In this document: positions 4,140 through 37,532 of the stretch, piece by piece | How the letters are laid out: the number at the start of each line of letters is the position of its first letter | How positions within the stretch are numbered: position 1 is the stretch's first letter | Assembly: GCA_021800165.1 (NCBI GenBank) | Contig: JAJYZF010000004.1 | Span: forward strand, 3,296-67,295 | DNA from: Planctomycetota bacterium | Lineage (GTDB): Bacteria > Planctomycetota > Phycisphaerae > WQYP01 | Length of the DNA: 64,000 bases | Reading direction: 5' to 3' | Position numbers and translations under genes: made by a program | The notes under the pieces: generated by a model | Databases searched by the model: none | What the model saw: the letters and a program-made list of their open reading frames with translations, nothing else | Told to the model about the DNA's origin: nothing

Positions 4140-5291
4140 TCACGTAGAAGTCTTAATGCCTTTCATGCGCATACGCAATTCATCCGGATTGGGCGAGACT
4201 ATATACGCCTCTTTGGGAGAAATGGTATGACTTTCAATAAGTTCCACCAGATTATCGTTAAAGTCGATCATTCCCGCGGTGCGCTCCTGACGAATGACCG
4301 AAACAAGTTCATTTTCACGACCTTCCAGAATGTATTTTTTCACGGATGGGGAATTCAATAACAATTCCACCACCGGCACACGATCTCCGCCGGTCTTCAG
4401 CGATGGCACCAACTTTTGAAACACAATGGCCTTCATGTTGGTGGCCAGGGCCTGACGGATGTTCACATGCATGTCCGGCGGAAACAATTCAAGAATGCGC
4501 GTGATCGCCCCGCTGGCACTACCCGCGTGAATCGTTGAATAGACCATATGGCCGGTTTCCGCCGCCTGCACCCCGGCCTGAAACGTATTGCGGTCGCGCA
4601 TTTCCCCGATAAGAATAACATCCGGATCTTCGCGCATCAGTGAGCGAATGGCCAGATCATAACTTTCAACATCCAGGCCGATTTCACGCTGATTTATAAA
4701 AGCCTTTTTATCAACATATAAATATTCAATCGGATCCTCCACCGTTACGACATGACAGGATCGCCGCTCATTGACCTGCTCAAGCATCGCGGCAATGGTG
4801 GTGCTTTTTCCACTGCCCGTGATGCCCGCCAACAGCACCAGACCCTGTTCCTGTTCGGCGATCTTTTCAAAGATCGCGGGCAGATGCAGTTGGGCAAAGT
4901 TGGGAATTTTGGGATTGATCCGCCGGGCCGCCACGCTGATGTTGCCGCGTTGGCGAAAAATGTTCATACGGAATCGTTCCGTGGGCGTGACGGCATGGGC
5001 TATATCCAAGGCCCCCAGATGTCGCAAATCCACACGCTGTTCCGGCGTGAGAATTTCATCCACCATGGCTTCTATTTCCGTATTGGTCAGGGCCATGTGG
5101 GTGGTCTGCATCAGTTTGCCACCCTTGCGAATGCGCGGTACCGCATCCGCCTTCAGGTGTAGATCGCTGCCTTCGAGTTTGGTAACCGCATCCAAAAATT
5201 TATGAATGCGCGGCCGAGCCGCACGGGTGACCACCGGCTCAACAGGCGAAGATTCCACTGCCACCAATTCGTTTTCGCTAGCCATGCGCAT
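4140..5291 (-). CDS. pilT: Type IV pilus retraction ATPase PilT/PilU family
   Basis: Walker A GITGSGKST, Asp box, His box (TGHMVYSTIHAGSA), PilT-type C-terminus. AGGTGGAG RBS upstream of the ATG at 5289-5291. Confidence 0.85.
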   Translation of the reverse strand: MRMASENELVAVESSPVEPVVTRAARPRIHKFLDAVTKLEGSDLHLKADAVPRIRKGGKLMQTTHMALTNTEIEAMVDEILTPEQRVDLRHLGALDIAHAVTPTERFRMNIFRQRGNISVAARRINPKIPNFAQLHLPAIFEKIAEQEQGLVLLAGITGSGKSTTIAAMLEQVNERRSCHVVTVEDPIEYLYVDKKAFINQREIGLDVESYDLAIRSLMREDPDVILIGEMRDRNTFQAGVQAAETGHMVYSTIHAGSASGAITRILELFPPDMHVNIRQALATNMKAIVFQKLVPSLKTGGDRVPVVELLLNSPSVKKYILEGRENELVSVIRQERTAGMIDFNDNLVELIESHTISPKEAYIVSPNPDELRMRMKGIKTST

Positions 5292-5367
5292 TAGACTCCA
5301 CCTAAGAACTTCGACATCATACCGGTTCCATCTTGAAATTTCACTCCTGGTTTTACCGCCGCATCGA

Positions 5368-6057
5368 TCAGATAACCAATTGCTCCAACCCGGTCAGACC
5401 AAGCATTTCCTCCACATAGAAAGGTTCGCCATAGGCTCGCCGAATAGTGCCGCCAAAATAAGCCGCTATCTGACGCACATACGCAATGGTTTCCCCGGCA
5501 TGGGCGGCATCGCGTCCGGTAAAAAATTGCGATTGATAGCAGGACAGCGCGGCAATTTTAGTCTCCATCACGTCCGAAATATCCAGGCAAAACCGGGCCG
5601 GAAAATTGATGCGCAAATGCGTGCAAAAATAATAAATCAGCCGCGGCGGATAAAACGGCTCGCCGGGAATATCACTGCGTGTGAGTTTCGCATCAAATCG
5701 GGCATCTTCACAAATGCGGGTGACCGCCAGATGATCCGGGTGGGCATCGTGCGCATAAGGAATAAAGAGAATATCCGGTCGGTGCTGCCGATAAATAGCC
5801 GCGACACGGTGTCGTGCCTCCAGCGAATGTATGACTTGACGATTTTTAAACCCCGCCTGCTGCCGCGACACGCCCAGAGCGCTGGCCGCGGCGTGAGCCT
5901 CCCTGGCTCGCAACTCCGGCGATCCAAACGGGGTAGGCTCTCCATCGGTCATATCCAGAAGGACCACGCGATGTCCAGCCTGGCGCAACCGCACAATCGT
6001 CCCCCCCATCGCCAACTCCTGATCATCCGGATGCGGCCCAACCACCAGTATGTTCAT
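5368..6057 (-). CDS. PIG-L/LmbE family N-acetylglucosaminyl deacetylase (BshB-like)
   Basis: MNILVVGPHPDDQELAMGGT...HPDH motif typical of LmbE/PIG-L deacetylases. Confidence 0.8.
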   Translation of the reverse strand: MNILVVGPHPDDQELAMGGTIVRLRQAGHRVVLLDMTDGEPTPFGSPELRAREAHAAASALGVSRQQAGFKNRQVIHSLEARHRVAAIYRQHRPDILFIPYAHDAHPDHLAVTRICEDARFDAKLTRSDIPGEPFYPPRLIYYFCTHLRINFPARFCLDISDVMETKIAALSCYQSQFFTGRDAAHAGETIAYVRQIAAYFGGTIRRAYGEPFYVEEMLGLTGLEQLVI

Positions 6058-29747: not shown

Positions 29748-30205
29748 GCGAAGACCCCGTGTTCCAATCGGCCAATCAGATTCTCGACTTCGCGTGCTCC
29801 AACGTCCGTCGCGGCGAAGTCCAGCGGGGTTTCTCCACCCAACCCCGATTGCCGGGTCTGTATCCACTTTCTCGCGGCTGCAACATCCCCCTCAAACAGA
29901 TCCACAGCCTGATCAAATATGGCCGATGCCCGCCACACCCGGTCGGATTCATCAGGTTGCAGTTTTCCTTCGCTTTGCCGCCGGGTCAGAGTACGTTGCG
30001 GGATGGCAACAAAGCGTGAGATTTCGGCCCACGGCAGTTGGGTCGCCTTCTGAAATCCGGCGAGTTTCTTGAACGGAAACCCGGCCCGGACCAACCGCAC
30101 GATCTTGACCGAATCGTTCGTGCCAATCCCAAGCCTGCGGGAGGCAACCCTCCTCTTTGCGCCCTTGATCTTGTACTTTCTCGCATGAGCCTCAGTAGTC
30201 GTCAT
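29744..30205 (-). CDS. Xre/MbcA/ParS-type antitoxin (DUF2384 C-terminal domain)
   Basis: AAGGAG RBS. C-terminal RASAIFDQAVDLFEGDVAAARKWIQTRQSGLGGETPLD is typical of RES-partner antitoxins. Confidence 0.7.
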   Translation of the reverse strand: MTTTEAHARKYKIKGAKRRVASRRLGIGTNDSVKIVRLVRAGFPFKKLAGFQKATQLPWAEISRFVAIPQRTLTRRQSEGKLQPDESDRVWRASAIFDQAVDLFEGDVAAARKWIQTRQSGLGGETPLDFAATDVGAREVENLIGRLEHGVFA

Positions 30206-30810
30206 AACAACTCCTTATTTGGCCAAATGGCACTATTGTACGCGCCAACTGGCTGGTAAACAAGGTATCGGTCTGACTTCCATTCCACCTTGACTGCCAC
30301 TCTCGCGTGTCCACCCGGCGACAAGCATGCCCGCACCTGACCTCAAGGCCACACCATTTTTGATAGGTGACTTAAGATCCAAGGTTTTCAAATCCTTCAG
30401 CAAAGACGCGTTTTCAAGATGGTCCGCATCGCCAAGGAGCCGCCTCTCGCGCCGTTCCCGAACCCAACGGCCCCGGCTTACGCAAAACGCCGCAAAGCCG
30501 GTTGGCCAGTTGCAGAGCAGCAAGCCTCCGTTCTCGGGGCGGCATTTTCCACACGAGCCAGCTCTTTCCCGGGCGTTTGAGAAATAGTTTGCGTCACCAG
30601 GCGGGGATTAACTTGCCGGTCGTTTTGTGGCCTTCGGAGATCATTTCAAACAGGAGCGGCCTCATTTTCCGGGTGCGGCGGTAACAGCGGAGCCAGGGGC
30701 GGTAATCCGGTGGTCAGGCCCTCGTTGCAGGGAAGGCCGAGCGGATGGCCGGGTTTTCGCCCATTGCGTGGTATGGGGCAAAATTGTAGACACCCAGCGA
30801 ATAGCTCCGG

Positions 30811-31254
30811 TCAGACCCATCGCGTGATCTTGTTTCCTTCCCGGTCAATAAAGTTGCCGGTCACGATCATGATGAGGTCGCAGATTATCCAGAGACCGAA
30901 ACCACCAAGGGTCAAAGGCATAAGTAGCCCTGTTCCAACCTTCCCCACGTAAAACCGGTGGACACCCAATATCCCCAGAAACCAACAGAGGAGTAGGACT
31001 GGAAGAATTCGCTCTGGGGTTCCAAGTTGAGCACCGCATTTTGGACAGGCGAGCGCGGTTGGGTGTATTTGGGCACCGCAGCCTGAGCATCGCCAGAGCC
31101 TTGAGGCCACTATGGCCTCGCGTTGGGCTGCCTGGCGGCTGAGCCGGTCGTGGCAGTTGGAGCAGACGATTGTATTTTGCCAGACCATCGCTTGTTCGTC
31201 TTTCCCCATTTGACGGGAACAGCATTCGCACTTTTCCACGGACTCTGTCGACAT
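30811..31254 (-). CDS. Zinc-ribbon / TM2-domain membrane protein
   Basis: Three CxxC pairs in the N-terminus. C-terminal TM2 domain (GVHRFYVGKVGTGLL...GGFGLWIICDLIMI). AAAGGA RBS. Confidence 0.6.
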   Translation of the reverse strand: MSTESVEKCECCSRQMGKDEQAMVWQNTIVCSNCHDRLSRQAAQREAIVASRLWRCSGCGAQIHPTALACPKCGAQLGTPERILPVLLLCWFLGILGVHRFYVGKVGTGLLMPLTLGGFGLWIICDLIMIVTGNFIDREGNKITRWV

Positions 31255-31690
31255 GTTAAAGTTCCTTTTCGTGGGGGCCGGGCGACGGGCTTACGAGTTT
31301 CCATATATTTTAGCCTACCGAATGGTTGCCGCAAGCTTGCGACGTAAATGCCCACATTGGCCCCTGTTGGCAGGGCCGTAAGGAATAGGTCTCTAATAAG
31401 TTCGGCGGTCAATGGGCGATTGAGTGTGAAAGGCTCCTATGAAATCGCTACACTGACTCGTACTTGGCTGGAGATACTCAGAGGGCGCTCGTCACCAGTA
31501 ATGGCGCGGACGATTCCCTCTTGGGGGAACGTAGCCTGCAGCCAGTTGGAAGGGAGAACATGATTATTTGGACGGTTTGCCCCAGGGGTGGGCTGCGGGT
31601 CTGAAAGAGCGTGTTTGGTACCAATCGGATCCCCGCGGTTCTGACGAGCCGGAACGAAGGAAGGCCCAGCGCATGCAGGTGTTGCATCTG

Positions 31691-33538
31691 TTACGGCACC
31701 GAGGACGGGATATTGCGGAGTTCACTTGCGGCTTGCTCCCGGAGATTATCCGGGGCATCACCCATTTTGAGTATATCACGATAACGGGCGGCAGCATCGG
31801 CGTATTCACAAGAAAGAGCGAGCAAACGCGATTGCGCCAAGATTGCCTTGGCCCTCTGATCGGTTGGTGCCTCCGCAGTCGCGGCCAGCGCGGCGTATTC
31901 CTGGATGGCCACCCGAAATCGCCCCTGCTCCGCATGGACTGCAGCACGGTTGTATTGTGCGTGGGCCCTTTGCGTGGCGGTTGAACCGGCGAGTTGAGCG
32001 ACGCGTTCGTAATCATCAATCTCGAGGTCAGGACGGCCCCGCATACCGTGTGTTATGGCGCGACTGATCAGAGCGTCGGCTTTCATTTCGGAGCTGCTTT
32101 CGGGTGCCGCCAGGATCGTATTAAAGTCCTCAATGGCGAAGTCGCACAATCCTGCGCTCCGGTAGGCGCGAGCTCTGCCGAATAGTGCGCTCAGGGCAAG
32201 GCTAGGCGGGACACCATCAATTTGCATGGCCTCGTTGAAATCGCTTATCGCGTCATGTGCTTGGCCGCAGCGTAGCCGGACGATACCGCGATTCCTTATC
32301 GCGTGCGCGGTGGTCTGCGGGCGCGCGCCCCGGACGCCAATTGCCAGGGTATAGAAATCGCAGGCCCAATTCGCGTAGCCGGAATTGCTGTAGCCGAGGC
32401 CAGCTTGAAGGTAATATTCGCCCCACCTTTCCGAGAGATCGAGGGACGAGAACAGCAGAAGCGACTCGGCGAAAACGACGACTGGGTGGCGATCATATTC
32501 CGGCGGGTCGGCCGCCGGCTGCGGCGAGACGGTTCCGCCAACTCGGGCGCCGATGATGAGGCCGTTCGTGCATCCCGCAGGCATCGCCGCTCGCGTGGCG
32601 GGCTCGCTGGGTAAGGTCGCGGCCCCACGGGCCAAATGGGCTTGATCTTCGTCGAGCAGTCGTTCCGGTGCCATTGCTGGTGGATCGTCGGCTACGGTGC
32701 CCCAGTCCTTTATGGGAACGCTGGTTTCGGCGCTCGACCTGCCGCCCAAGGTGCGCGTGGCCGCCGGGAATCCAAAAAGGGACGTGCAGCGGTTGGGGTT
32801 TCGGCCCACGATAATGGCCACAGAGTAGTCTCCGATTTCGTTGATTACCGTGTTGCCGCAAAAATTCGATTGGTCGCCAAGATTACCTTCCTGTATAGGA
32901 AAATGGATGCCGTTCCACCAGAGGTCCGCCTGTATCAAGCAGAAGTGGGATCCGAAAAATTTTGCTTGAAATGCCGTCTGTCCATTTCGGGCTATTGTGA
33001 ACATCCCGCCGTGGTAAACAATGTCATCGACGTCTGAGGTGCGGTAGGACATCTCATTATTTTGAATGATGAGCAACGGATTATCCATCTCGTCGTATAT
33101 TTTTAGACTTAAAAGCCAGTGATCTGATTCCCACCGTAGGCTGATAACGGAATTGCCGTCCATAGCCAGTATTATCACGTAACCGTCCTGGCGGGCGCGC
33201 ATGGAGAAGCTGTTGCTGGCAACGGAGATGCAGCACTCACGGGAGTGGGTTAGCCAAACTGTATCGGGAGTGCTAAGCGAATTCTGCCGGCGTTTGTTGA
33301 AGGGGGTAGAATTGGCCGCCCCGATCTCTTTCCGCGAAAAAATCCCGTTTGTTGTCTTTCTGTGGCATCCATCGCAGAGCATTGTGATATCATTTTCGAC
33401 GTGGCCCGTTTTGCTGTTGTAGCCATTAATATGGTGGTATTCGCAAATAGGCCTGCCGCACAGTACGCAGCCATAGCCACATCTTTCCCGCACTCGACGT
33501 TTTATTTCTGCGGGAATTTGCGGGCGATTCTGCGCCAT
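31691..33538 (-). CDS. Large HNH-nuclease / TPR-repeat protein (candidate defence effector)
   Basis: N-terminal HNH motif RCGYGCVLCGRPICEYHHINGYNSKTGHVENDITMLCDGCHRK. A central region of about 330 aa has no recognisable family. C-terminal TPR-like repeats run from about residue 430 to the end. [10 protein letters not shown] before the ATG at 33536-33538. Confidence 0.6.
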   Translation of the reverse strand: MAQNRPQIPAEIKRRVRERCGYGCVLCGRPICEYHHINGYNSKTGHVENDITMLCDGCHRKTTNGIFSRKEIGAANSTPFNKRRQNSLSTPDTVWLTHSRECCISVASNSFSMRARQDGYVIILAMDGNSVISLRWESDHWLLSLKIYDEMDNPLLIIQNNEMSYRTSDVDDIVYHGGMFTIARNGQTAFQAKFFGSHFCLIQADLWWNGIHFPIQEGNLGDQSNFCGNTVINEIGDYSVAIIVGRNPNRCTSLFGFPAATRTLGGRSSAETSVPIKDWGTVADDPPAMAPERLLDEDQAHLARGAATLPSEPATRAAMPAGCTNGLIIGARVGGTVSPQPAADPPEYDRHPVVVFAESLLLFSSLDLSERWGEYYLQAGLGYSNSGYANWACDFYTLAIGVRGARPQTTAHAIRNRGIVRLRCGQAHDAISDFNEAMQIDGVPPSLALSALFGRARAYRSAGLCDFAIEDFNTILAAPESSSEMKADALISRAITHGMRGRPDLEIDDYERVAQLAGSTATQRAHAQYNRAAVHAEQGRFRVAIQEYAALAATAEAPTDQRAKAILAQSRLLALSCEYADAAARYRDILKMGDAPDNLREQAASELRNIPSSVP

Positions 33539-33787
33539 TTGCCCCTCCAAGGAGGATAGCCGTTGAGGGCAGTCAGGCCGTACACAACAACGGTACGTCC
33601 GAGCGCAAAGAATCCTAAGCTTTTCGTTATTGCCACGCAAGCAGAACTGCGGAAGATATTACATTTCCTTCAGGGGCGCGGTCCAGCGGGTTACGGAGGC
33701 TCAGAACAGTGGGGGCGAAGCGGGATGCCTCTAGGGTGGTTGTTGGGTGTACCGTAAATATGAGATTCCCGCCGGTAATTTAGCCCT

Positions 33788-33816
33788 TTCCAATCCCTCC
33801 CACGCTATTCTTATCT
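33788..33816 (+). repeat. Direct repeat DR2 (att-like), pairs with 29120-29145
   Basis: See DR1. Confidence 0.5.
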
Positions 33817-34269: not shown

Positions 34270-35415
34270 ATGGCGAAAGTTGCGGTAAAAGAAAGTATTC
34301 TTCGCTGGGCCGTGGAACGTTCCAAGCGGTCGCCGGATGCGTTTTTGCCTAAATTTCCACACCTGCGCGATTGGGAAGAAGGCATCGCCATGCCGACCCT
34401 GCACCAGCTTGAGCAATTGGCCACGGCCACGCACACTCCGCTCGGCTATTTCTTTCTTGAGAAACCTCCCACAGAGGCGCTCCCAATTCCACATTTTCGC
34501 ACGCTCGTGGAGGAAACGCCAAACGATCCCAGCCCGGATCTTCTGGAAACCGTTTATTCGATGCAACGTCGCCAGGATTGGATGCGGGAATTTCTTATTG
34601 CCGAAAGCCACGCACCACTGCCATTCGTGGGTCGCGCAAAGCCCTCAGATTCCCCGGAGGTTCTCGCCCGGACGCTAAGAACAATCCTTGGATTTGCCGA
34701 TGGCTGGGCGGTCACCGCACCAAACTGGGCCGCAGCCCTGCGTAAGCTTCAACATGCCAGCGAACAAGCCGGCATCCTCGTCGCGGTAAGCGGCATTGTG
34801 GGCAACAACACACGCCGAAAACTTGATCCGGCGGAATTCAGGGGATTTGTTTTGGTGGACGACTACGCGCCGCTGGTATTCCTGAACGGGGCCGACGGGA
34901 AGGCGGCACAGATGTTCACCCTGGCACACGAACTGGCACATGTGCTCTTCGGCAGCAGCGCCGCCTTTGATTTGCGGCAAATGGCCCCGGCGCAGGGCGG
35001 GATCGAACGTGCATGCAACCGACTGGCGGCTGAGTTCCTTGTGCCGGCCGAACAACTCAGGGTGGCGTGGTTGCAGACCCGAAGCCAAGACGACCCCTGG
35101 CAATTTCTGGCACGCCAATTCAAAGTCAGCGAAATTGTTGCCGCACGGCGCGCCTTGGACCTGAAGCTGATCGGCCATGAAACGTTCCGCGAATTCTATG
35201 AAACCTACATCAGAATGGAAAGAAAAAAGCCCAAGGGCGACGGCGGCGATTTTTATCTAACCCAGAGCTCCCGCCTCGGAGGCCTCTTCGGCACCACCGT
35301 TGCACGAGCGGTTCGGGAAGGCAGGCTGCTCTATACCGAAGCTTATGAACTCACCGGCATGCGGGGGAAGACATTTGATAATTTTATAAGCCACCTGCCG
35401 GAACACAGTGCGTGA
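34270..35415 (+). CDS. XRE-HTH / ImmA-IrrE family zinc metallopeptidase (COG2856)
   Basis: N-terminal HTH (TLHQLEQLATATHTPLGYFF). HEXXH motif (TLAHELAHVLFG) in an ImmA/IrrE-like domain. Confidence 0.75.
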   Translation: MAKVAVKESILRWAVERSKRSPDAFLPKFPHLRDWEEGIAMPTLHQLEQLATATHTPLGYFFLEKPPTEALPIPHFRTLVEETPNDPSPDLLETVYSMQRRQDWMREFLIAESHAPLPFVGRAKPSDSPEVLARTLRTILGFADGWAVTAPNWAAALRKLQHASEQAGILVAVSGIVGNNTRRKLDPAEFRGFVLVDDYAPLVFLNGADGKAAQMFTLAHELAHVLFGSSAAFDLRQMAPAQGGIERACNRLAAEFLVPAEQLRVAWLQTRSQDDPWQFLARQFKVSEIVAARRALDLKLIGHETFREFYETYIRMERKKPKGDGGDFYLTQSSRLGGLFGTTVARAVREGRLLYTEAYELTGMRGKTFDNFISHLPEHSA

Positions 35416-35429
35416 AGGTAGTTCAAATT

Positions 35430-35915
35430 ATGTATCTCCTGGACGCGAATGTCTTTATTGAGGCCGCGAAACGCTATTATGCCTTCGACTTGGTGCCGCA
35501 ATTTTGGACGCGGCTGATTGAACAGGAGAAAGCCGGGCGATTATGCAGCATCGACCGCATCAGGGACGAACTGCGGAGGGGCAAAGATAGGCTGGCCCAA
35601 TGGGCCTCCACGGACTTTTCCGAGGCTTTCCGGAACTCGGCGGAGGCGAAGACCATCAAGGCTTACAGCAAAGTGATGAATTGGGTCCAAGAACAACCGC
35701 AATTGATTCCCGCCGCGAAAGATGAATTCGCCCGTTGCGCCGATGGATGGCTGGTCGCCTACGCGATTGCGCACGCATGTACAGTAGTGACGCACGAGGT
35801 ATTTGATGCAAACACCAGGCGCAGGGTGAAAATTCCCAATGTTTGCAGGGCGTTCGACATTCAGTACGTCGATACCTACGCGATGCTGCGACGCCTGGGC
35901 ATTCAACTGGTCTGA
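35430..35915 (+). CDS. DUF4411-family PIN-like protein (partner of COG2856)
   Basis: MYLLDANVFIEAAKRYY... D-rich PIN-like core. Translationally coupled to the ImmA gene (4-nt overlap if the upstream GTG is used). ATG at 35430 preferred. Confidence 0.7.
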   Translation: MYLLDANVFIEAAKRYYAFDLVPQFWTRLIEQEKAGRLCSIDRIRDELRRGKDRLAQWASTDFSEAFRNSAEAKTIKAYSKVMNWVQEQPQLIPAAKDEFARCADGWLVAYAIAHACTVVTHEVFDANTRRRVKIPNVCRAFDIQYVDTYAMLRRLGIQLV

Positions 35916-35949: not shown

Positions 35950-37350
35950 TTTGCCGAGTATGTCTGCGGCCCGCAAAAAATGGCCACAACTCATCCCCAT
36001 CCGGACCGTCCCCACGCCCATTCCCCCGCGCCCACGCTCTGCGTACCTCTGCGTCCGGAGTTTATCCCGATGTCTATCGGGACGGTGAGCCCCCCCCGCG
36101 GCCGCAGCCGCCTTTACTCCCGACTCCCGACTCCCGTCTCCTGTCTCCTGACTCCTAACTCCCAAATCCTAACTCCTGCGGCCACAGCCGCTATTACCCC
36201 CCCCCATACCCCGCCTATCACTCAACCAAGCGGAACTCCCGATGGAAGGCTCATTCCCGATGGCTATCGGGACGCAGCCAAGCCTCGTTCCGCCTGGCCG
36301 CAGGCCCTTAAACCGCCTGCGATCATTGACAAGTAAATACGTGCCTCGCCACAGCGGCCCCGTCGAAGCCACAGGCGTGCACCACACCAAAATAAGGAAT
36401 TCGACTCATGCCCATGCTGCGCCTGAAACAAGCACAAAACCGACCACTAACCCGGAAAATTAAAAATGTTTGGACACTTTGGCCATCTTGGCCATCTTAC
36501 CCCAAAACCCCAACAAAACCGCCCATTTTTCAACCTGTCCAAGATGGCCAACCCCCAAAAACTTGGCCACCTTGGCCATCTTACCCGTCGCCGTCCTCCC
36601 GTTGAGGCATGGATGCCGAAATCCTCGATGTGGCAGGAGCCAAGCATCGGGAAGGCATGGATGCCGAAATCCTCGATGTGGCAGGAGCCACGCATCGGGA
36701 ACTCCTGACTCCTAACTCCCGTCGCGGCATGGACGCCGAAATCATCGATGCTGGAGGACCGGCGTATCGGGACCTCCCAACTCCTAACTCCTAACTCCTT
36801 ACCAAAAAAAACGTGTTGATCTTGTCGATCTTGATAATCTTGCCCAAAAATCCAACGCAGTGCCCCGTGTCCCTTCGTGTCCGATATTTATCCCGTCGTC
36901 ATTTAATCTGTGTAAGGCGTTTATCCCGAAGTCCATCGGGATGGATCCCCCTGTCCGCGCTCCGTGAACCTTTGTGTCCATTGTGGTAAAAAAAACGCCA
37001 TCCTTCTCCGTTCTTCGCGCCTTCGTCACTTCGTGTTTAACCCGTCGTCGCGCCCCCGTTAAGGCACGGATGCCGAAATCCCGATGTGGCAGGAGCCAAA
37101 CATCGGGACTGAAACCTGACCGCTTCCCCGCGTCCCCTGCGGTAAAAAATCGCCGCAGCTCTGCCGACCGCAGCCCTCCACCCGCCCGAGGGTACCGCCA
37201 CACATTCTGCCAAGCGCGGAAGCGGTGTGCTTGACAGAAAGTCCCATCCGCGACGCCCGGCACGATGCCCGCGGCAAAAAGGCGGAAGCGGGCGGTTGCC
37301 GCAAAATCTAATCGCACCCCCGCCCGAACTAAAAACCTCTGCCGCTTGCC
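35950..37350. repeat. 1.4-kb repeat-dense noncoding region upstream of tRNA-Lys
   Basis: About 48-bp tandem units GGCATGGATGCCGAAATCCTCGATGTGGCAGGAGCC(A/C)(A/G)GCATCGGGAA at 36606, 36654, a degenerate one at 36727 and a partial copy at about 37061. ACTCCTAACTCC-type tracts at 36120-36180, 36697-36727 and 36770-36800. TTGGCCATCTT direct and inverted copies at 36469-36590. CCCGATG-N-ATCGGGAC hairpins at 36065, 36255 and 36925. C8 and C9 tracts at 36090-36097 and 36197-36205. No credible ORF. Confidence 0.6.
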
Positions 37351-37400
37351 AAATCCGCTGCCCGCCTTAGAATTATAAACTGCACTCGCGCGGGGGCAAT

Positions 37401-37473
37401 GAGGCCGTAGCTCAGCTGGTAGAGCAACAGACTTTTAATCTGTGGGTCCTGGGTTCGATCCCCAGCGGCCTCA
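37401..37473 (+). tRNA. tRNA-Lys (anticodon UUU)
   Basis: GAGGCCGTAGCTCAGCTGGTAGAGCAACAGACTTTTAATCTGTGGGTCCTGGGTTCGATCCCCAGCGGCCTCA. Cloverleaf folds with the anticodon loop CTTTTAA. CCA is not encoded. Confidence 0.9.
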
Positions 37474-37532
37474 TTTGCCCGCCCAAGTAGGATCCGCCAC
37501 CGGCCAAGCGGCACCGCAAACGAAATATCATC

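Follow-up and report, generated by a model that had tools for sequence, protein, structure and literature searches.

An HNH nuclease-TPR fusion protein and its zinc-ribbon/TM2 neighbour in a Phycisphaerae genome, probably independent cargo genes rather than a two-gene defence cassette

Do two adjacent genes in a planctomycetal genome form a new defence cassette, or do they simply share a site? This question is raised by a 64,000-nucleotide stretch of DNA, hereafter the window, from a Planctomycetota bacterium (Phycisphaerae, WQYP01; GenBank assembly GCA_021800165.1, contig JAJYZF010000004.1, positions 3,296 to 67,295 of the forward strand). One of the two genes, the HNH-TPR gene, codes for a large protein with an HNH nuclease domain and a tetratricopeptide repeat (TPR) array, and the next one for a membrane protein with zinc ribbons and a TM2 domain. 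A preliminary description, made from the DNA and its open reading frames (ORFs), proposed that both together are an undescribed two-gene module for defence or abortive infection. Our analyses point to a different and, in our judgement, probable reading, namely that these are independent cargo genes of a small islet, that the HNH-TPR protein represents a family of otherwise solitary nucleases that may act in genetic conflict and carries, in one population only, a fused TPR array, and that the TM2 gene is a bystander. Both ORFs lie on the minus strand, as already described, with the following organization:

31691-33538, minus strand: HNH-TPR gene, 615 amino acids, a member of the HNH + beta-domain family fused to a TPR array
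33290-33538, minus strand: HNH (beta-beta-alpha-Me) nuclease domain, residues 1-83 of the HNH-TPR protein
32759-33241, minus strand: all-beta (beta-hairpin repeat) domain, residues 100-260, family-specific, with no Pfam or NCBIfam model
32489-32743, minus strand: linker, predicted to be disordered, residues 266-350 (predicted local distance difference test, pLDDT, 26-59)
31712-32488, minus strand: TPR solenoid, residues 351-609, 13 helices
31255-31690: spacer of 436 bp between the HNH-TPR and TM2 genes, no gene called
30811-31254, minus strand: zinc-ribbon/TM2 membrane protein gene, 147 amino acids, TM2 domain at residues 86-128

The two genes as neighbours

The HNH-TPR and TM2 genes were found side by side in only five contigs, all of them from a single Phycisphaerae population, with DNA identities to the window of 99.7-99.8% for four contigs and 98.0% for the fifth. 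The gene order that such close relatives have in common amounts to one data point and cannot be taken as conservation. Beyond that population the pair is not conserved as neighbours, which is the very outcome that the preliminary description had named as speaking against its cassette. This was also evident from 80 loci with homologues of the nuclease, fetched by family alignment from species-representative genomes and totalling 872 kb. In none of them did phmmer searches with the window TM2 protein or with the TPR region retrieve anything, and a TM2 profile hidden Markov model (HMM) made from 119 homologues gave 0 matches at E<=0.01, with 2.7e-49 for the window control. The closest relative of the nuclease outside the population, encoded in a Phycisphaerales metagenome-assembled genome (MAG; locus L010), is a 305-amino-acid solitary protein, 47% identical, with neither a TPR array nor a TM2 neighbour.

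Within the window, the two genes share a strand but are separated by 436 bp and do not look tightly coupled. No promoter or terminator consensus was found in the spacer, the sigma-70 scan being perhaps ill-suited to Planctomycetota, and the gene calls on the related contigs also left it empty. A 69-amino-acid ORF (31478-31687, minus strand) begins in it 3 nucleotides past the HNH-TPR stop codon; it has the composition typical of a chance ORF, matches nothing in Pfam or NCBIfam and was not called on any related contig.

The companion protein itself is easily recognized. It matches the Pfam TM2 model (PF05154) with 56.5 bits against a cutoff of 27.9 (E=3.3e-15), and also DZR and Zn_ribbon, in agreement with the domains first assigned to it; the number of its CxxC knuckles had to be corrected from three to four (C9/C12, C31/C34, C56/C59 and C70/C73), which make two zinc ribbons. 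It is a clear member of the YozV/'NINE protein' family (COG2314, PF05154), and its TM2 domain is 50-62% identical to that of many other members. Zinc ribbons at the N terminus are frequent in this family; most members have one, the window protein two. Among its 891 homologues, many are zinc-ribbon-TM2 proteins of about 100 amino acids called YozV or NINE, and the nearest ones are encoded among housekeeping genes or alongside further TM2/DUF898 genes, in surroundings that lack an HNH gene. All five related loci carry an intact TM2 gene; a 36-amino-acid gene call in one MAG (L002) that looked like a truncation is a gene-calling artefact, because the L002 DNA is identical to that of the window. 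The TM2 protein is thus probably an ordinary YozV/NINE-type membrane protein encoded by an independent gene, and the two genes look like unrelated neighbours on the islet.

These observations bear directly on the possibility that the HNH-TPR and TM2 proteins constitute one new abortive-infection or defence system, in which the TPR array would sense and the nuclease, the membrane protein or both would act as effectors. Same-strand adjacency in five of five related contigs, the sharing of the islet with a toxin-antitoxin pair and the integrity of both genes in all alleles are compatible with it. The confinement of the pair to one population with 98-99.8% identity, the long spacer, the lack of any TM2 match in the 80 loci, the housekeeping neighbours of the TM2 homologues and the absence of both a TPR array and a TM2 neighbour from the closest HNH relative nevertheless make such a system very unlikely. 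We found no paper in the literature that links HNH, TPR and TM2. Had the cassette been real, it would have been a new defence system, which the evidence does not support; as previously noted, neither protein matches any named defence system in PADLOC.

A TPR fusion in a family of solitary nucleases

The Pfam match of the HNH-TPR protein to HNH is marginal (E=0.083), but its residues make up a canonical zinc-stabilized HNH site. The two knuckles C24-x2-C27 and C55-x2-C58 are present and provide the zinc ligands C24, C27, C55 and C58. Across family alignments of 60 and 83 sequences, conservation is complete or at least 90% at C24, C27, H36, H46, C55 and H58/H59, the catalytic histidine H36 and also H46 being invariant and the metal-binding histidine H59 conserved in at least 90%; alignment position 58 is a histidine in most family members and the middle 'N' position varies (N, E or D). 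The window protein keeps all of these conserved residues and has the beta-beta-alpha fold that defines the HNH superfamily. The possibility, raised at the outset, that the HNH residues might not be conserved in homologues, which would have spoken against the assignment, can therefore be set aside. The same alignments settle the gene start: family N-termini align from residue 1, so that ATG 33538 is the correct start and there is no need to invoke the TTG further upstream at 33640.

An AlphaFold2 model of residues 1-300, built from 83 aligned sequences, is confident (pLDDT 84.7, predicted template modelling score, pTM, 0.82) and places the HNH domain at residues 1-83; behind it, at residues 100-260, some 15 strands form one hairpin after another and make up an all-beta domain. 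The central region of the protein had been described as some 330 amino acids with no recognizable family. It actually consists of two parts, a conserved beta domain (about 84-265), present alongside the HNH domain throughout the family, and a linker of about 85 amino acids, predicted to be disordered, at residues 266-350, which is the point where the family homologues stop in the alignment. The C-terminal TPR array, by contrast with this revised middle part, was correctly identified: it matches Pfam TPR_12 with 35 bits against a cutoff of 30.1 and comprises six to seven repeats, which the full-length AlphaFold2 model folds into a 13-helix solenoid over residues 352-609 with pLDDT 75-94. Foldseek matched this solenoid to a consensus TPR (E=1e-7) and to the TPR domains of kinesin light chain and OGT (to E=1e-5). 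A sequence search of the PDB gave weak TPR matches and nothing else.

The family only becomes visible when the TPR array is left aside. With the full-length protein, a word-indexed search returned its own 90% cluster and TPR-only proteins and nothing more, and a first scan of genome contigs gave no match. With residues 1-320, an exhaustive HMMER search retrieved 1666 representatives at E<=1e-3 and 689 at E<=1e-10, these being counts of cluster representatives at 50% identity. Among the 150 matches listed, lengths were mostly 245-320 amino acids and many alignments extended to residues 220-289. In PHROGs, phrog_6544 matches residues 7-186 of the window protein (E=4e-24), and the HNH + beta-domain module lacks a model in Pfam, NCBIfam and PADLOC. 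Residues 1-265 of the window protein hence belong to a large, taxonomically patchy family of solitary HNH + beta-domain proteins. The homologue is a stand-alone gene in all 80 loci examined, of about 210-390 amino acids and mostly 245-320, and these loci come from Planctomycetota, Cyanobacteria, Proteobacteria, Actinobacteria, Firmicutes, Bacteroidota, Chloroflexota and Nitrospirota. The window protein departs from the stand-alone length of about 245-320 amino acids, having 615 with its added linker and TPR array, and is therefore a fusion variant of the HNH + beta-domain family.

The closest described relatives are those of the phrog_6544 family, such as WP_150348752.1 from a Pseudomonas luteola P2-like prophage and QBP07698.1 from the Klebsiella phage ST846-OXA48phi9.2. 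They possess an HNH + beta-hairpin domain homologous to that of the window protein, with 30-47% identity and the same zinc and catalytic residues, and are likewise encoded by solitary genes in variable or mobile settings. They end where the linker of the window protein begins, whereas the latter adds this linker of about 85 amino acids and a TPR array of about 260. Family members were found in one of 50,697 sequenced phage records and eight of 72,556 plasmid records, and the family is therefore mainly a cargo of chromosomal islands. The Enterobacteriaceae homologue had no megablast match in complete E. coli genomes. In L010, the homologue lies between ligA and a thioredoxin-reductase-like gene, about 400 nucleotides downstream of a putative MazF/PemK toxin gene (5256-5600, plus strand), a further example of the family beside toxin-antitoxin-type genes.

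Database names for the family are varied and in part misleading, including "hypothetical", "HNH endonuclease signature motif containing protein", "cell division protein" and "trigger factor" (P0005, P0310, P0316, P0318, P0324), the last of which one source also applies to the window protein itself. Neither 'trigger factor' nor 'cell division protein' is supported by the present evidence. On the Photobacterium plasmid pPHDD1, a 405-codon ORF (L007, 4992-6209) runs from the module in frame into a further segment that, judged by eye, looks like an FKBP or trigger-factor peptidyl-prolyl isomerase, and the name 'trigger factor' has probably spread from an ORF such as this one.

Other C-terminal additions occur in a few family members: Lsr2, one Sel1 repeat (P0190), a SEC-C motif, the FKBP-like segment and unannotated extensions. 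Moreover, in five Acinetobacter species (L026, L032, L037, L044 and L045) a gene for an ankyrin-repeat protein of 103-108 amino acids follows directly downstream on the same strand after a gap of about 36 nucleotides (4385-4693 in L026). Helical-repeat modules thus recur with the nuclease in three forms, TPR, Sel1 and ankyrin, which fits a regulation by protein binding, with these three events as its basis. A DJ-1/PfpI gene accompanies the Acinetobacter ankyrin-repeat gene, and another lies near the homologue on pPHDD1.

Settings of the family and possible functions

The genes surrounding the homologues place some of them in variable or mobile DNA. In a P2-like prophage the homologue sits beside RelE/Xre, after the portal gene, and on plasmid pPHDD1 it adjoins RelE/HTH. 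In a Klebsiella prophage it is found among early-region genes, between replication genes and the Q antiterminator, and in Enterobacteriaceae it occupies a variable junction downstream of a UDG-family gene (mug position) after rpoD. The immediate neighbours in the 80 loci that match defence models are AbiV, MADS, AriA, type IIG and type IV restriction enzymes, AbiJ and Hma; integrases also occur among the immediate neighbours, and tyrosine integrases were detected in the neighbourhoods of six loci. All-against-all clustering of the neighbouring ORFs in the 80 loci revealed no recurrent partner: the two largest clusters were antisense shadow ORFs of the HNH gene and the next ones corresponded to the generic ABC, MFS and SDR superfamilies. 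A relaxed search of same-strand ORFs within 300 nucleotides recovered within-genus synteny and no other partner.

A nuclease with this distribution might be a selfish free-standing homing endonuclease, or a mobile-element nuclease for packaging or recombination, with no role in defence. HNH domains are a typical feature of homing endonucleases, the family has a patchy distribution and solitary members, and copies exist in prophage and on plasmids and close to the integrases just mentioned. We regard this explanation as unlikely, however, given the extreme rarity of the family in sequenced phages, the lack of any recurrent target gene or terminase neighbour in the loci examined and the absence of known homing DNA-binding modules according to Pfam; a TPR fusion would also not be expected of such an enzyme.

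A comparable, small probability attaches to the idea that the family consists of type IV modification-dependent restriction nucleases, in which the beta domain would recognize modified DNA for cleavage by the HNH domain and the TPR array would be accessory. In favour of this idea, the HNH domain of the window protein resembles those of the type IV enzymes EcoKMcrA, ScoMcrA, TagI and VcaM4I, the gene is solitary with no methyltransferase partner, and some homologues reside in islands beside restriction genes. By contrast, the reader domains of those enzymes (SRA, SBD, EVE and others) are absent from the window protein, its beta domain matches no known modification reader (SRA, EVE/PUA, SBD) and has no solved structural counterpart, and its HNH domain is N-terminal, the reverse of the order in most of them.

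Other known systems were compared as well. Cap5, the HNH-SAVED effector of CBASS, can be matched over no more than some 100 residues, with a high root-mean-square deviation; the SAVED domain is absent from the window protein, and Pfam and PADLOC found no SAVED, CD-NTase or CBASS gene in it or in its neighbours. ZorE, the HNH protein of type II Zorya, is matched weakly and in the HNH motif alone, with E=3e-4 in PADLOC and, in NCBIfam, 21.7 bits where the cutoff is 600, and PADLOC identified no ZorA, ZorB or ZorC beside the window gene. END nucleases were considered as relatives and discarded, as they belong to a different family (PLD/EndoIII). The preliminary description had compared the TPR array to the sensor modules of STAND/Avs proteins, with which the window protein does have in common a C-terminal TPR array and an N-terminal nuclease effector. 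Nonetheless, the analogy fails because the HNH-TPR protein has no nucleoside triphosphatase (NTPase) module according to Pfam, PADLOC and the AlphaFold2 model: where those sensors have their defining NTPase (NACHT, NB-ARC or AAA), the model shows the beta domain and a linker predicted to be disordered between HNH and TPR, and PADLOC gave no Avs match.

Alleles of the HNH-TPR gene were compared as well. The exact proteins are recorded in a few NCBI, ENA and JGI assemblies. The 615-codon ORF is intact in six of six alleles, including the 98% allele, and it is against this single 98%-identical allele (L001) that all the selection figures for the window gene were calculated. The two alleles agree throughout the HNH region, the beta domain has a ratio of non-synonymous to synonymous substitution rates (dN/dS) of 0.21 and the linker carries 4 non-synonymous and 0 synonymous changes. 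In the TPR array, residues 400-510 (32009-32341) accumulate 16 non-synonymous and 7 synonymous changes (dN/dS 0.73) and residues 511-615 are unchanged. This patch might reflect either mosaicism by recombination or a binding surface that has diversified. Because synonymous changes cluster at residues 400-510 as well, positive selection was set aside as the preferred explanation, and recombination is no less likely a source of the patch than diversifying selection. Could the ORF instead be a decaying, non-functional relic, an HNH gene read through into a TPR gene? The overall dN/dS, the substitutions in the linker and in residues 400-510 and the confinement to one population would agree with decay. 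The intact ORF in six alleles, the unchanged HNH region, the constrained beta domain and the intact catalytic and zinc residues speak against it, making this the least probable of the explanations considered here.

Several observations weigh against the reading that we prefer, that of independent cargo genes with a TPR-fused nuclease. The full-length fusion exists in one population only, which leaves room for a partnership with TM2 in that lineage alone. The full-length model has a pTM of 0.52 and does not predict the relative placement of the domains. In the raw tally, defence-type genes are a minority of the 128 immediate neighbours scanned. Finally, the whole HNH-TPR gene differs from L001 by 23 non-synonymous and 13 synonymous changes, and its dN/dS of 0.55 indicates modest constraint.

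Under this preferred reading, a member of the family would have gained a C-terminal TPR array in one population through a flexible linker of about 85 amino acids. The resulting protein would be a metal-dependent DNA nuclease engaged in genetic conflict, possibly as a single-gene effector against phages or other mobile elements. Its beta domain may bind the substrate or mediate assembly, and its TPR array may contact a protein that either triggers the nuclease or, as a partner, gates or targets it. The architecture, the family membership, the HNH fold, the conserved zinc and catalytic residues, the solitary distribution and the missing co-occurrence with TM2 are direct observations, from which a role as a DNA nuclease in genetic conflict, with a TPR module that binds protein, is the probable inference. 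A broader and more doubtful, although conceivable, extension would be that the entire family, with at least 689 clusters in eight or more phyla, represents an unrecognized type of single-gene immune nuclease whose activity is controlled by protein-binding modules made of helical repeats. In that event its clearest case would be the window protein, with the TPR sensor fused in cis, and the Sel1-repeat fusion (P0190), the Acinetobacter ankyrin-repeat gene and the C-terminal add-ons (Lsr2, SEC-C, FKBP-like) would fit as well.

Beyond the cassette, what this locus brings to light is a sizeable, horizontally spread HNH family with a conserved beta domain, no curated model and misleading names, located in variable spots with toxin-antitoxin genes, defence genes or prophages. 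The TPR fusion points to regulation by protein binding and offers a handle for finding what the family responds to, and the members from Enterobacteriaceae, Vibrio, Pseudomonas and Acinetobacter are directly testable against phage collections.

The islet and its surroundings

The segment that carries the two genes was said to be flanked by tRNA-derived direct repeats and to be shared with a RES-Xre toxin-antitoxin pair, both of which our analyses bear out. Its remaining features are the following:

29744-30205, minus strand: Xre-family antitoxin gene (Pfam Xre-like-HTH and Xre_MbcA_ParS_C, 1.2e-15 and 3.6e-10)
29271-29747, minus strand: RES-domain toxin gene (Pfam RES, 3.3e-33; 158 amino acids per gene calls on related contigs)
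29121-29142, plus strand: left direct repeat, inside a fragment like the 3' end of a tRNA or tmRNA (about 29105-29137)
33789-33810, plus strand: right direct repeat, with 19 of 22 bases the same as in the left copy

Such a degree of identity between repeats had 0 expected occurrences in shuffled sequences. The fragment around the left copy resembles the T-arm and acceptor 3' strand of a tRNA or tmRNA; no intact tRNA was called at 29.1 kb, and Rfam matched two tRNAs and no other family across the whole window. The RES and Xre genes overlap by 4 nucleotides, and 605 bp separate the TM2 gene from the Xre gene. Pfam detected no integrase among the scanned ORFs of the segment. The segment is present in all related contigs, and an empty-site search with a 30-mer of the right flank found no match in JGI metagenome contigs. 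Positions 29143-33788 are best read as a small integrase-less islet bounded by tRNA-like direct repeats within a larger variable region, more precisely as a degraded tRNA-end islet with three independent cargo units, the RES-Xre pair, the TM2 gene and the HNH-TPR gene.

The variable region around the islet is rich in toxin-antitoxin and defence-type genes according to Pfam, PADLOC and NCBIfam, in agreement with the mobile or defence-type context originally suggested for the locus. It includes a second HNH nuclease, unrelated to HNH-TPR, which is a 377-amino-acid HNH_2 protein (26306-27439, minus strand) matching the NCBIfam model for phosphorothioated-DNA-binding restriction endonucleases with 114.8 bits, under its cutoff of 180, and a PADLOC HNH model (E=3.7e-10). 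On the other side, next to the islet (34270-35915, plus strand), an ImmA/IrrE (Peptidase_M78)-HTH gene overlaps a DUF4411 (PIN-like) gene by 4 nucleotides. The ImmA/IrrE-HTH protein matches many PADLOC models of RmrA, the RosmerTA antitoxin (best E=1e-14), and the DUF4411 protein has no PADLOC match; together they have the look of a toxin-antitoxin or defence pair of the RosmerTA kind.

A CsrA-family gene (28612-28923, minus strand) directly adjoins the tRNA-like fragment at the islet's left edge, an unusual site for a global regulator that suggests an accessory copy carried by the island. Further to the right, dense dispersed and tandem repeats occupy positions 36000-37320, just upstream of tRNA-Lys (37400-37474), and comprise 66-nucleotide units spaced 48-72 nucleotides, short palindromes (TCCCGATG...CATCGGGA) and 7-nucleotide runs of the CTCC(T/C)(A/G)AC type.

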